43,697 nucleotides of DNA from a virus (IMGVR_UViG_3300012943_000030:1-43697); one strand, 5' to 3'; counted from the stretch's first letter, positions 437 through 5,340 are shown. The notes: generated by a model not told the origin, from the sequence alone. Numbers and translations: made by a program.

Positions 437-562
437 TGACAACCGTTGATGTTGGTTATCTGGTTAACTTAGTGGCCGTAAAACGCCTACTCAAGTAAAT
501 CCTAAACGGTTCAAACCCGTTGGGTCGTCGCAAGACGTTTTCCGACTTCGCTTTTGTTGTCA
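437..562 (+). ncRNA. tRNA-mimic ncRNA E1 (permuted, YrlA-like architecture)
   Basis: Closing stem TGACAAC(437-443)/GTTGTCA(556-562); motif CAACCGTTGATGTTGGTTATC; T-arm AACGG-TTCAAAC-CCGTT (505-521) followed by a GCAA-capped stem; homologous to 3929-4043. Confidence 0.6.
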
Positions 563-573
563 TCTTCATTCAT

Positions 574-653
574 GTGACCTTGAGATTGTGGGTTCGATTC
601 CCATGCTTGCGTACAGCAGGCGAGTTGCATAGGATTACAACGCAAGCTCTCAC
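574..653 (+). ncRNA. Circularly permuted tRNA-like RNA E4
   Basis: Order: CTTG, 5-nt linker, T-arm GTGGG-TTCGATT-CCCAT, loop-closed acceptor-like stem GCTTGC/GCAGGC, GA, D-like arm GTTG/CAAC, G, CAAG; no CCA end. Confidence 0.6.
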
Positions 654-656
654 TTT

Positions 657-752
657 GCTCGTTAGCTTGGGTAAGCGGCTGGGCCTTATAGACCCGGGAA
701 ACCTGCCAGATTAGCGGGAACGTGACGGGTTCGAGTCCCTCAGCGAGCACCA
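657..752 (+). tRNA. Atypical tRNA, probable Ile(UAU), with long extra arm
   Basis: Acceptor GCTCGTT/AGCGAGC-A-CCA; T-loop TTCGAGT; mini D-arm GCTT-GGGT-AAGC; stem CTGGG/CCCGG around CT-TAT-AG; extra arm CCTGC-CAGATTA-GCGGG. Confidence 0.5.
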
Positions 753-761
753 ATTTTATTT

Positions 762-835
762 CTCTGCGAAGCGTTACGGTAGCGTACTAGGTCTGGACCC
801 TAGAGGCGGCAGTTCGACTCTGCCCGCGGAGACCA
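762..835 (+). tRNA. tRNA-Pro(UGG), variant loop (C33, A37)
   Basis: C1-G72 acceptor CTCTGCG/CGCGGAG-A-CCA; CTAGG-TCTGGAC-CCTAG; T-arm GGCAG-TTCGACT-CTGCC. Confidence 0.8.
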
Positions 836-841
836 ATTTTC

Positions 842-917
842 GCCGGCATAGCTCAGTTGGTAGAGCGCCTGTCTTGTAAGCAGGAGGCCCGGGGTTCGAT
901 CCCTCGTACCGGCACCA
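842..917 (+). tRNA. tRNA-Thr(UGU)
   Basis: Canonical cloverleaf, loop CT-TGT-AA, CCA encoded. Confidence 0.95.
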
Positions 918-924
918 GTTTAAT

Positions 925-1053
925 GCAGAAGTAGCCGAGTGGTCAGGCAGCGGTCTCAAACATCGTTTGTGATCCTTTGTTGCGCAAGCAACCGTCCATA
1001 AATGGTTATCCCAAACCGCCATACGTAGGTTCGAATCCTACCTCTCTGCACCA
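925..1053 (+). tRNA. tRNA with a 53-nt structured insertion in the anticodon loop (identity uncertain; CAA if the junction is 37/38)
   Basis: GCAGAAG acceptor, D-arm GCC/GGC, anticodon stem GCGGT(950-954)/ACCGC(1015-1019) enclosing 60 nt instead of 7, T-arm GTAGG-TTCGAAT-CCTAC, A-CCA end; removing 53 nt leaves 76 nt. Confidence 0.7.
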
Positions 1054-1057
1054 ATTT

Positions 1058-1132
1058 GGGACAGTAGCTCAGTGGTAGAGCAACGTGCTGATAACGCGTA
1101 GGTCGAAGGTCCGATTCCTTCTTGTCCCACCA
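1058..1132 (+). tRNA. tRNA-Ile(GAU)
   Basis: Cloverleaf, loop CT-GAT-AA, T-loop TCCGATT, CCA. Confidence 0.93.
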
Positions 1133-1304
1133 AATTCGACTGCCATGGTGCATTTGCATCGCCATGGATACGCCCTGCGGGTTGCAAACTGCGCGGCCGA
1201 CAGTCGATGTATTAGCGGTAGAACGGTGAAAGCCGTTTCGTCGATGGTCTCGTTGCGCCATCGCCGCGAAAGCAACGCGAGCGGCTCGAACCGCTCCAAG
1301 TTTT

Positions 1305-1389
1305 GCCCCTGTGATGGAATTGGTAGTCATGCGAGTTTCAAAAACTCGTGCCGCAAGGCGTGTCGGTTCGATCCCGACTGGGGGCACCA
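1305..1389 (+). tRNA. tRNA-Leu(CAA)
   Basis: Type II cloverleaf, CGAGT-TTCAAAA-ACTCG, long variable arm, CCA. Confidence 0.93.
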
Positions 1390-1539
1390 AGTTTGATGTG
1401 GCTTTCAGATCGCGGCTTAGCGGCCGAGGCCCGTGGGAAGGTGGATGGCTCTTCGACTTTCCCTATGCGAAAACAAAGGCGTTGGCACCACAGAGTAAGA
1501 GAGCCTGAGGGTGTCCCTGTTCGTCACATCATTTTATTT

Positions 1540-3248: not shown

Positions 3249-3258
3249 GGAGCTACGC

Positions 3259-3873
3259 ATGAAGGTTTCAGAGCTGTTCGAGGGAAAGCGCCAGAAGGGC
3301 ATTAACTACACAGAGGTTAAGGCCAAAAAGAAAGGTGCTGAACAAGTTGTCGAGAAGGTTATCGCCGAACTCAAGGGTAAGGACTCGGGAGCTTGGACGC
3401 GCCTCACAAAGCAGTACATTGATCTCGATGACAAGCTCAAGGACCTCACTATTGACCGCAACAAGCTCAACGATGAGATCAAGGCGGAAGCCGCAGACAT
3501 TTTTGACGCAGCCGACGACGTGCTTACTCGCGTTATCGAGACTGCCCAGCTTACGCTGACCCTCTCGAAGAAGACGAAGAAGCCAGAGACGACTGAAGTC
3601 GACCATGAAAAGGTCGTTGCCGGTCTGCTTGCCTCAAAGCTCACTCCAGCCATCTCAAAGATGCTTGATGAGCTCATCAAGGCTAACTCGAAAATTATTG
3701 AAGCTTCCGAAGTTCCTGAAAAGCTGACTGTCAAGCGTAACAAGGTTGACGAAGGCTTCTCATTCGGCTCTCTCAAGACGTGGCTAGCCAACATAGTTGG
3801 TAAGCTGAGGTCCCTGATCAAGGACTATGATGAAAAGTTTGATGCTGTGAAGGCCCAAGTGGCCGCTCTTTGA
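3259..3873 (+). CDS. Hypothetical coiled-coil late protein (MKVSELFE...)
   Basis: AAGGAG RBS directly after the upstream stop; 204 aa. Confidence 0.85.
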   Translation: MKVSELFEGKRQKGINYTEVKAKKKGAEQVVEKVIAELKGKDSGAWTRLTKQYIDLDDKLKDLTIDRNKLNDEIKAEAADIFDAADDVLTRVIETAQLTLTLSKKTKKPETTEVDHEKVVAGLLASKLTPAISKMLDELIKANSKIIEASEVPEKLTVKRNKVDEGFSFGSLKTWLANIVGKLRSLIKDYDEKFDAVKAQVAAL

Positions 3874-3874
3874 G

Positions 3875-3903
3875 TTTACTTTCGTTGATTGGTTTGATAG
3901 AAT
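3875..3903 (+). promoter_or_regulatory. Sigma70-like (early-type) promoter driving ncRNA E2
   Basis: TTTACT-N17-TAGAAT. Confidence 0.65.
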
Positions 3904-3912
3904 ACATACATT

Positions 3913-4059
3913 GAGTTCGCTCAGTAAAAGCACAACCGTTGGATATTGGTTATCTTTTATCTGAAACAAAAACCTAGACCGTTCGATTCGGTCGTGTGCA
4001 GGTGGGCCAGGTGCACAATCTCCGATTCCGTTTTTGTTGTACTTTTAGTGAGCGAACTC
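3913..4059 (+). ncRNA. tRNA-mimic ncRNA E2 (permuted, YrlA-like architecture)
   Basis: Perfect 11-bp outer stem GAGTTCGCTCA/TGAGCGAACTC; motif CAACCGTTGGATATTGGTTATC; T-arm GACCG-TTCGATT-CGGTC (3977-3993); stem GTGCA/TGCAC; 3' CCGATTCCGTTTTTGTTGT shared with E1. Confidence 0.65.
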
Positions 4060-4303
4060 TGTCCTTACCCTAGCGGTTAGGATGCTATTTCAAAATTTGT
4101 GTGCACGAAAACGTAGCTCCTACGCAATGAGTAATTCGTACGGACCGTCCCAAAATCTCGGGACTGAAGGGAGCAAGTATACCTGAATGCCGTGATGGTA
4201 TAGAATTTTACTTGAAGTACTTTGCCTTGCTGTGATGATCGTTGCTATGTAACCGTCTGCAATAATGCGGTCAACTTCACAACGTAGCGGCAAGATCGAA
4301 TTT

Positions 4304-4393
4304 GGAGGAATGGCTGAGCGGTTTAAGGCGCTAGTCTTGAAAACTAGAGAGGTTTCACGACCTCCGTGGGTTCGAATCCTACTTCCTCCGCCA
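4304..4393 (+). tRNA. tRNA-Ser(UGA)
   Basis: Type II cloverleaf, CT-TGA-AA, G73-CCA. Confidence 0.95.
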
Positions 4394-4399
4394 AATTAA

Positions 4400-4975
4400 C
4401 GCACGAGCAGAAGCGTTCAATAAGTCTCTGCCAGTTTGCAAGTTTATCCGCGGAGATGTGCTACGGCTGCTCCTAAAACTTCGCCGGGCCCGTCAAGCCT
4501 AGTAAACAAACTCGACTTGGGCGTGGTCATTCCCGCCCCGAAAATTTAGAGCTGTTGAATTTCAGCAGCTCACCATATTTCTAGTCATGAGGTGCCGATG
4601 CGCACCGCTTGAATGACCAGAACCTCTCGCGCTCAACTCCTTGTCTGACGCGCGGATGAGTAATGACAAGGGCCCAACTCCATCGGGCATTGGAACCACC
4701 TTCGCGCCTAGCGCACCGTTGGTAAGCGTGGTAAAAGATGGAGAGACCAACACGACTTTGTGTGGGAGCGTAAGCTCACCGAACACTCACCGCGTCGCCG
4801 ATGCTAGCGTATGGCGAATAAAAGTTCTGATTACCATGCTTGAATAATTTCAAGGCCGAAAGGTCCCATTCGCGGAGCATGGAATAGGTTGGTGCGGAAT
4901 CACTGCCAACACACAGACATGGCGCTTACGACGTGCAGTAGACCATACGTCGAAAATCGCGTAAGTTGCCACCGA
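4400..4975 (+). ncRNA. Large ornate structured RNA candidate (GOLLD-like context)
   Basis: About 570 nt between tRNAs with no credible CDS and many helices: 4549-4554/4566-4571, 4639-4645/4665-4671, 4834-4840/4876-4882, 4925-4930/4960-4965, plus a GAAA tetraloop. Confidence 0.5.
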
Positions 4976-4979
4976 ATTT

Positions 4980-5055
4980 GGGGCTATAGCTCAGCTGGGA
5001 GAGCGCTTGCATGGCATGCACGAGGTCCGGGGTTCGATCCCCCGTAGCTCCACCA
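4980..5055 (+). tRNA. tRNA-Ala(GGC)
   Basis: Canonical, G3:U70, closely resembles enterobacterial tRNA-Ala(GGC). Confidence 0.97.
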
Positions 5056-5074
5056 AATTTGTCCTGAGAGAACT

Positions 5075-5221
5075 ATGAAACTCAACATTGTTGAAATAGA
5101 CGGCGTCAAGTACCACCACTTTCGCCATCGTTGCTTTGGCCCAGACCTAAAGAGAAAGACCTTTCACTATGTGCGAAGGATCAATGGTGCCTCTCTTGGG
5201 CCAGCGCTAAAATGGAAATAG
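5075..5221 (+). CDS. Small basic hypothetical protein (48 aa, below the ORF-track cutoff)
   Basis: GAGAG RBS; MKLNIVEIDGVKYHHFRHRCFG...WK*. Confidence 0.55.
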   Translation: MKLNIVEIDGVKYHHFRHRCFGPDLKRKTFHYVRRINGASLGPALKWK

Positions 5222-5340
5222 CAAACCGGGATTGACGGTTATCCACAGATAAGTAGGTTCGAATCCTATCTAGTACGGTACGGCCGCTAGAGGCAACGCT
5301 GGTAAGTTGCAACTCGTTGGTCATTTTTGTTTGCCCTATT
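5217..5340 (+). ncRNA. tRNA-mimic ncRNA E3 (T-arm, acceptor-like stem, D-arm; YrlA-like)
   Basis: Closing stem AATAGCAAAC/GTTTG(CC)CTATT; motif AACCG-N7-CGGTTATC; T-arm GTAGG-TTCGAAT-CCTAT; CTAG/CTAG stem; D-like arm GCAAC-GCTGGTAA-GTTGC; TTTTTGTTTG. Confidence 0.65.

Follow-up and report, generated by a model that had tools for sequence, protein, structure and literature searches.

Introduction

Ro60 is known as the lupus autoantigen, and Ro60 and its Y RNAs have been studied chiefly in animals and a few bacteria. In the characterised Y RNA systems, the tRNA-like head of the RNA is handled by tRNA enzymes, and Y RNAs normally depend on Ro60 to be stable. Here, three RNA elements, termed E1, E2 and E3, are described from a 43,697-nt stretch of viral DNA (IMGVR_UViG_3300012943_000030:1-43697), the whole of which is referred to as the window. 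An earlier note on this DNA had presented them as circularly permuted tRNA-mimic RNAs sharing an unrecognised module and had suggested that they were Y-like RNAs of the YrlA type or a new class of tRNA decoys. The present analysis favours, with a probability of roughly 0.8, the reading that E1–E3 are genes for Y RNAs that partner the phage's own Ro60 and have a YrlA-type layout.

In vertebrates, Ro60 binds at a helix that has one bulged cytidine inside GGUCCGA (PMC4726728; PMC4201824), and the sequence UUAUC is kept at the 5' end of the loop in both vertebrate Y RNAs and nematode stem-bulge RNAs (sbRNAs) (PMC4450293; PMC4726728). YrlA RNAs carry a 5' motif, GNCGAAN0-1G, that is thought to contact Rsr, and a conserved YUAY opens their V loop; phage-encoded YrlA RNAs beside Ro60 have been published, and PNPase is linked to Ro60 by a Y RNA in Deinococcus and Salmonella (PMC4201824). 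For phage phiLo of Thermus, binding of phiRo60 to the RNAs Yrl1 and Yrl2 was detected by electrophoretic mobility shift assay, and RNA decay in vitro was damped by the ternary complex that they form with host PNPase (PMC12135203). TROVE proteins have been noted in a subset of jumbo phages, a tRNA-like partner being known from cellular organisms (PMC7824862).

Results

Structure of the three elements

All three elements lie among tRNA genes and small open reading frames on the same strand (Table 1), and their coordinates and motifs were found in the sequence as described in the earlier note. Each begins with (R)CAA(A)CCG-N-YGGTTATC and ends with (N)TTTT-GTT(T)G, the latter pairing with the 5' CAAC or AAAC over 7 bp in E1, over 4 bp extended by a long outer stem in E2, and over 6 bp plus 4–5 bp in E3. 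Two helices are formed by the ends: P1, consisting of CAAC/GUUG and variants thereof, and P2, which comprises about 9–10 bp and varies in sequence from copy to copy. Between P1 and P2, one unpaired C and a G are found on the 5' strand and a run of U on the 3' strand, and UUAUC opens the loop directly after P2. The loop contains a real T-arm, with a 5-bp stem and a UUCRANN loop, followed by a loop-closed stem; in E3, a D-like arm with a 5-bp stem and a GCUGGUAA loop is present in addition. The 11-bp outer stem reported for E2 was seen together with further pairs, and the fold of this element gave a z score of -4.85. As to the suggestion that E2 has its own promoter, a promoter-like site does precede the element, though the regional count of such sites corresponds to chance.

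The module at the ends had been called unrecognised. Its terminal helix, bulged C, G, second helix of about 10 bp, UUAUC and returning UUU-G match the core of Y RNAs, and in E1, E2 and E3 alike, the terminal stem has the bulged C within CCG and UUG opposite, with UUAUC at the 5' end of the loop, as in broadly defined Y RNAs. The distance between CCG and UUAUC is 11 nt in E2 and 10 nt in E1 and E3. A spacing of 11 nt was also found in 28 of the 43 family members described below (range 10–15 nt, with 7–16 nt allowed in the search), in the Y RNA1 primer GGCTGGTCCGAAGGTAGTGAGTTATC (PMC3928194) and in the Rfam sbRNA consensus. The parts that are present follow the order of the Rfam YrlA consensus (stem, loop, stem, V, T-arm, closed acceptor, D-arm, stem), as had been proposed, and UUAU(C), matching YUAY, stands right after P2 in each element. 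Of the YrlA head parts, E3 has the V region, the T-arm, the closed stem and a D-like arm; E1 and E2 are without a D-arm.

The Ro60 gene and its neighbouring RNAs

The window forms the first 43.7 kb of a 107.7-kb viral sequence (G000) that is 29% complete by CheckV. A TROVE/Ro60 gene, which the earlier note had named as a check on its reading, was identified in full length further along this record (Table 1). The encoded protein contains TROVE (1.4e-32) and vWA_Ro60 (3.6e-55) domains and matches the structures 9nen (animal RO60; 5e-107), 1yvp (Xenopus Ro60; 7e-105) and 2nvo (Deinococcus Rsr; 6e-97) in the PDB. Directly upstream of the gene, two RNAs bear the module of E1–E3, with a helix, a bulged C, a G, a second helix, G(G/A)UUAUC and, on the returning strand, CCUUU-G.

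Module-bearing RNAs were likewise found upstream of Ro60 in five relatives, in four of them (L237, G003, G007 and G009) by pattern search and in the fifth (G006), whose module has diverged, by eye. TROVE is encoded in 3/3 module-bearing records that are at least 90% complete and also in one that is 32% complete. The cultured Sinorhizobium phage Phosso (PV764938.1, 469 kb) encodes a Ro60 of about 40% identity, with the module about 1.4 kb upstream of the gene and at five other inspected places, all of them intergenic or unannotated wherever the annotation was checked. The 3' strand of the Phosso module reads CACUUG, as in animal Y RNA1. In the Phosso copies near 19161 and 24194, ACCA follows the 3' strand of the closed acceptor stem; the third permuted copy, at about 24431, is without it.

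Taken together, the Ro60 gene, the module beside it, the Y-RNA signature and the YrlA order support the YrlA-type Y-RNA reading advanced in the earlier note.

Motif statistics, covariation and family membership

Four copies of the motif AACCG-N6-9-GGTTATC lie in the window (441, 990, 3934 and 5224), all of them on the plus strand, compared with none in 100 shuffled sequences or in the reversed 107-kb record, which places the motif above chance. A composite module, defined as the 5' motif, UUU, a P1 of at least 5 bp and a P2 of -6.5 kcal/mol or better, was detected at five sites of the 107-kb record, each of them plus-strand, whereas the reversed sequence had none and 30 dinucleotide shuffles a mean of 0.27. 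Every module copy found has the orientation of all tRNAs called by ARAGORN. A blastn search of the region against deposited phages gave matches to tRNAs only.

Relatives were gathered by a pattern scan of a viral collection, followed by a two-part motif search over the fetched loci. The 14-base pattern of the first scan yielded mostly chance matches and was discarded; a longer pattern also yielded many chance matches, and candidates were sorted by T-arm quality and by a P2 self-pairing test. In this test, each family member's P2 5' strand had in its own 3' strand a much better partner than in the 3' strands of the 73 other candidates (ranks from 0 to a few), and chance matches failed through poor pairing. 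The family thus obtained comprises 43 distinct free-standing members of 54–288 nt, 23 with a T-arm and 20 without any, the latter including RNAs that adjoin Ro60 genes. As C, the bulged C, G, UUU and G were fixed by the search pattern, these positions carry no weight in the 43-member tally.

Covariation among homologues, which the earlier note had asked for, was present in the alignments of both E1-type and E2-type sequences. For nine E2-type sequences, E2 included (alignment A2), RNAalifold returned a consensus of P1, P2, T-arm and closed stem with 25 pairs, in which 92.6% of the cells are paired and 13 pairs show changes on both sides; none of 500 shuffles was as good, and sliding the partners by 1–3 columns reduced pairing to 30–49%. 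Nine E1-type sequences (A4) gave the same four helices, with compensatory changes in 17 of 25 pairs. Positions of P1 covary in both alignments. A covariance model based on A2 (R1) detected the full length of E1, at 36.2 bits (E 2.4e-6), as well as that of E3, at 25.9 bits (E 7.7e-4), and a further copy beyond the window, the T-arm form of Table 1 (21.7 bits, E 0.008). Homologues of E3 were found in L100, L138 and L141. In the loop of the closed acceptor-like stem, UGG is kept in 9/9 E2-type homologues (A2 columns 76–89, window ~4001–4011). It is reminiscent of G18-G19 of the D-loop; E2-type RNAs have no separate D-arm.

Two further alignments were abandoned. No covariance model was built from the Ro60-adjacent and simple Y RNAs (A1 and A5), in which MAFFT misregistered the CCG and the P2 3' columns, and the D-arm-bearing members (A3) were too heterogeneous, with RNAalifold giving only P1 and part of the T-arm.

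Copies across the record and in relatives

At least nine copies of the module are scattered through the tRNA arrays of the 107-kb record (Table 1). One is a simple hairpin, and in another a T-arm lies between the two strands of the module. Two CCA-ending, tRNA-shaped genes bear a GNRA-closed hairpin of the docking type in the anticodon loop. In the first, Infernal places the insert after tRNA position 37, and the strands run ...UUUGUUGC-GCAA-GCAACCG..., that is, module 3' strand, tetraloop (979–992), module 5' strand. Because this order is the reverse of that in E1–E3, the gene and the E elements are circular permutations of each other with regard to the module. The second gene has no anticodon stem at all. 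About 15 further tRNA genes with the module in the anticodon loop were found in relatives. For the same insert-bearing tRNA, the anticodon was read as CAA by Infernal and as CCC by ARAGORN, and such tRNAs may be non-decoding. The module was considered as a spliced tRNA intron and rejected, as removal of the insert yields inconsistent anticodons and no RtcB is encoded in the fragment.

A third topology, as in Deinococcus Yrn1, is found at L066:4031-4160 (IMGVR_UViG_3300031251_000086), where a complete, unpermuted tRNA-Ile(GAU) cloverleaf is nested in the loop of the Y-RNA stem.

E1-type homologues begin 4–6 nt past the CCA end of a tRNA, and E3 stops 4 nt ahead of one. Around seven of the nine E2-type members there are long outer stems, in which the sequence varies and complementarity is kept. 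This juxtaposition with tRNA ends and the covarying outer stems fit co-transcription and release with the tRNAs, and the elements are probably co-transcribed with, and excised alongside, their tRNA neighbours.

Table 1. Positions of the elements, module copies and other features. Numbers refer to the window, or to the source record where G000 is given.
Feature	Position	Strand	Parts and remarks
E1	437-562	+	Putative Y RNA with partial tRNA-like head; P1 437-443/556-562; bulged C 444; G 445; P2 447-455/542-550; UUAUC 456-460; V-region hairpin ~461-504; T-arm 505-521; closed stem with GCAA loop 526-537; CUUUU 551-555
E2	3913-4059	+	Putative Y RNA with T-arm and closed acceptor-like stem; outer stem 3913-3932/4040-4059; P1 3933-3936/4036-4039; bulged C 3937; P2 3939-3949/4020-4030; UUAUC 3950-3954; T-arm 3977-3993; closed 7-bp stem with UGG-containing loop 3994-4018
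E3	5217-5340	+	Putative Y RNA, most complete YrlA-like form of the three; outer stem and P1 5217-5226/5329-5340; bulged C 5227; P2 5229-5238/5313-5322; V hairpin, opened by UUAUC, 5239-5252; T-arm 5253-5269; closed acceptor-like stem 5270-5290; D-like arm 5293-5310
Promoter-like site	3875-3903	+	TTTACT-17-TAGAAT with extended TG, 10 nt 5' of E2; consensus match only
tRNA with module insert	925-1053	+	CCA end; module as 54-nt anticodon-loop insert closed by GCAA tetraloop; Infernal tRNA 41.6 bits
tRNA with module insert	G000 45884-46013	+	CCA end; module in anticodon loop
Module copy, hairpin form	G000 46345-46422	+	
Module copy, T-arm form	G000 49012-49144	+	
Module copies beside Ro60	G000 57398-57471; 57517 to ~57880	+	Directly upstream of Ro60
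Ro60 gene	G000 57932-59551		Full length
Phosso module copies	PV764938.1, near 19161, 24194, 24431, 288701, 420443, 420671		
RNase P RNA homologue	9195-9489	+	Type A
tRNAs with CUA anticodon	24736-24809; 25136-25209	+	Amber suppressors
tRNA-like gene	655-752	+	CCA end
T-arm and closed stem	588-647	+	Directly 3' of E1

Evidence weighing against the Y-RNA reading

Several observations weigh against assigning E1–E3 to Ro60. The Rfam models for YrlA, Y_RNA and sbRNA miss E1–E3 (E up to 5–10) and the Ro60-adjacent RNAs as well. In particular, the YrlA model (RF02553, threshold 69 bits) gave no match to E1–E3 at E <=5 in an 11-kb search or at E <=10 in a 3-kb search, its matches within the window being weak and lying across ordinary tRNA pairs; a search with all Rfam families, at gathering and at permissive thresholds, returned nothing for E1–E3 or the Ro60-adjacent RNAs. 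The bacterial Rsr motif GNCGAAN0-1G is absent from E1–E3: at its position, E1 and E2 read CAACCGUUG and E3 reads AAACCGGGA, with CG but neither a preceding GN nor a following AA. The elements are situated 52–57 kb upstream of the Ro60 gene, not adjacent to it, and R1 scores the short Ro60-adjacent RNA at 10.3 bits (E 5.2). Since this score is not significant, the link between the E elements and the Ro60-adjacent RNAs rests on the shared motif pattern. In addition, co-occurrence with Ro60 comes from one jumbo-phage clade and Phosso, which are not phylogenetically independent observations, no module was found directly upstream of Ro60 in two more distant relatives (L238-L240), and some of the invariant positions in the family statistics were set by the search pattern.

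Alternative explanations

E1–E3 might instead be tRNA decoys that act independently of Ro60. Their heads would act as a sink for host factors that target tRNA, or would misdirect them, for instance anticodon nucleases, RNase P or enzymes that bind the T-arm, while the stem would bind another protein or only stabilise the RNA. The heads are indeed real, covarying mimics of a T-arm and closed stem, and they are placed in an island of tRNA metabolism that holds roughly 50 tRNAs and a homologue of RNase P RNA, at a distance from Ro60. It is the stem module, however, and not the head that is most conserved; the same module is carried by the 20 T-arm-less members, including RNAs next to Ro60 genes, and it has the Y-RNA signature in sequence, bulge and spacing. 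A pure decoy role is regarded as improbable, and a decoy class is not needed to explain E1–E3, though it is possible for the tRNA-like heads.

According to a second alternative, the elements are cis-acting processing cassettes that provide RNase III or RNase P sites, or small selfish insertions of tRNA operons, without a function in trans. The long covarying outer stems around E2-type copies, the position of the elements tight against tRNA ends and the many copies per genome would suit such cassettes. The copies have, however, diverged with compensatory changes and are not sequence-identical repeats, and the bulged C, UUAUC and the 11-nt spacing are conserved where Ro60 is only about 40–57% identical. 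Conservation of these features across diverged phages points to a surface that binds protein and not just to a stem that is cleaved, which makes a purely cis-acting role highly improbable.

A third alternative concerns true permuted tRNA genes of the Cyanidioschyzon type, in which a working tRNA would arise from the transcript by circularisation or by cleavage in the closed-acceptor loop and the shared module would serve as an intron-like processing signal. Neither ARAGORN nor Infernal called a tRNA in the unrotated sequences of E1, E2 and E3. Every T-arm-bearing family member was then opened at all positions and submitted to ARAGORN with introns allowed. The elements of four relatives were called as intron-containing tRNAs, only when rotated within the closed-acceptor loop, so that true permuted tRNAs do exist in the family; E1–E3 were never called at any rotation, on which ground a permuted functional tRNA was rejected for them. 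E1–E3 are reduced mimics, not permuted tRNA genes. Strictly taken, they are not circularly permuted tRNAs.

The position of the module, at the anticodon-loop intron site of two CCA-ending tRNAs of the record, and the ACCA of some Phosso copies speak for permuted genes, but with E1 and E2 lacking a D-arm, none of the three having an anticodon stem-loop, removal of the insert giving an inconsistent anticodon, copies without any tRNA part in existence, and no RtcB ligase (a check also named in the earlier note) in the 107-kb fragment, which represents 29% of the genome, this explanation is hardly credible for E1–E3. No resemblance to the hammerhead, twister, pistol and hairpin ribozyme cores was noticed.

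Genomic setting and other features

The source is a giant soil phage, and related contigs of 330–360 kb identify it as a jumbo phage. A dense tRNA array fills bases 1–10,200 of the window. The RNase P RNA homologue scored 63.3 bits (E 5e-19), which does not reach the Rfam threshold of 100 bits. It covers the full model in just 295 nt and retains the conserved core blocks, with the specificity-domain region shortened from ~110 to ~33 nt, and looks like a phage-encoded, minimised RNase P RNA within the tRNA island.

Two tRNAs with a CUA anticodon are encoded in the window, and the phage otherwise reads as using the standard code. The CCA-ending tRNA-like gene at 655 combines an acceptor stem of 7 bp and a good T-arm with a variable region that is over-long; it was called by neither ARAGORN nor Infernal, and a possible UAU anticodon loop was seen by eye. 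Adjoining E1, a T-arm (GTGGG-TTCGATT-CCCAT) leads straight into a closed stem of 7 bp (GCTTGCG...CGCAAGC); a surrounding Y module is lacking here, and R1 matches in part, at 13.4 bits.

Discussion

Proposed mechanism

We infer that E1–E3 are expressed and processed, bind Ro60 and have a function downstream of this binding. The terminal stem would be the docking site for the phage Ro60, if the analogy with Y RNAs of animals and bacteria holds. It has two parts, P1 with the bulged C and the G facing the U-run, and P2, after which UUAUC opens the loop. The loop holds a piece of inside-out tRNA, with the T-arm stacked on the closed acceptor-like stem, to which E3 adds a V hairpin and a D-like arm. 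This head may bring in or gate a second factor, so that Ro60 would most likely be coupled to tRNA-binding or RNA-decay machinery during infection, and different heads would lead to different partners. That different heads share a single docking stem points to several partners from tRNA metabolism. The elements would be transcribed together with the tRNAs and freed by tRNA-processing enzymes, perhaps also by RNase III, for which the long outer stems of E2-type members would be suited.

A more far-reaching proposal, which is tentative and rather unlikely in its full form, is that a set of Ro60-docking RNAs with interchangeable heads wires Ro60 into tRNA metabolism and that the docking code of animal Y RNAs is ancient and common to phages and animals. 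The heads would range from none, through a minihelix with a T-arm and a permuted tRNA, to a complete nested tRNA or one that ends in CCA and has a docking hairpin in the anticodon loop, and Ro60 might, for example, inspect, protect or repair phage or host tRNAs hit by host anticodon nucleases.

Novelty and significance

In the literature searched, no description was found of many copies scattered through tRNA arrays far from Ro60, of phage RNAs with the animal-type core of bulged C, 11 nt and UUAUC, of D-arm-less heads, or of permuted and unpermuted tRNA topologies side by side. As public RNA models miss these genes, Ro60–Y RNA systems in large phages are probably under-counted. This phage clade offers many natural variants of a single docking stem, joined to different heads derived from tRNA. 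With its own Ro60, dozens of tRNAs and RNase P RNA in the genome, the clade makes both the function of the head and the docking code directly testable, and Sinorhizobium phage Phosso is a cultured carrier that can be used for experiments.

Comparison with known systems

Among the closest counterparts are the YrlA RNAs of Salmonella, Mycobacterium smegmatis and mycobacteriophages (PMC4201824). As in the E elements, the ends pair into a stem where Ro60 is presumed to sit, the loop has the parts of an inside-out tRNA running V, T-arm, closed acceptor stem, D-arm, pyrimidine-UA-pyrimidine opens the V region, the length is about 110–125 nt and Ro60 is encoded by the phage. The E elements differ in having the 5' motif RACCG with a bulged C instead of GNCGAAN0-1G, in lying in tRNA arrays 52–57 kb from Ro60 rather than adjoining it, in the lack of a D-arm in E1 and E2, and in the number of module copies, at least nine in 107 kb compared with one or two for YrlA. 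A difference is also seen in searches with the YrlA model, which gives 42 bits to an RNA adjoining the Ro60 gene in Gordonia phage Cashline but does not score E1–E3.

Phage phiLo likewise combines a phage Ro60 with phage Y-like RNAs and offers a tested model for what a phage Ro60–Y ribonucleoprotein may do. Its Yrl1 and Yrl2 are defined by CGAA and located beside the gene, with no tRNA-like head mentioned (PMC12135203), and phiRo60 is distant from the Ro60 of this phage (E 4e-07). The Y RNA Yrn1 of Deinococcus radiodurans also has a T-arm, and the strand order of its tRNA-like part is the normal one. This order recurs among the relatives of the E elements in the nested tRNA-Ile form, and the T-arm form of the source record also has its T-arm between the module strands, whereas E1–E3 have the permuted order of YrlA.

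Animal Y RNAs and nematode sbRNAs (RF00019, RF01656) share with E1–E3 the single bulged C in CCG, an upper helix, UUAUC 10–11 nt after CCG and UUG on the returning strand, and among solved structures the phage Ro60 is slightly nearer to animal RO60 than to Rsr. Animal Y RNAs differ in being without a tRNA-like domain, in their helix sequences (GGUC/GACC instead of the CAAC/GUUG of the phage) and in their RNA polymerase III or La context, of which the phage elements have none. E1–E3 are most likely an unusual form of a known RNA–protein partnership and not a new kind of system.

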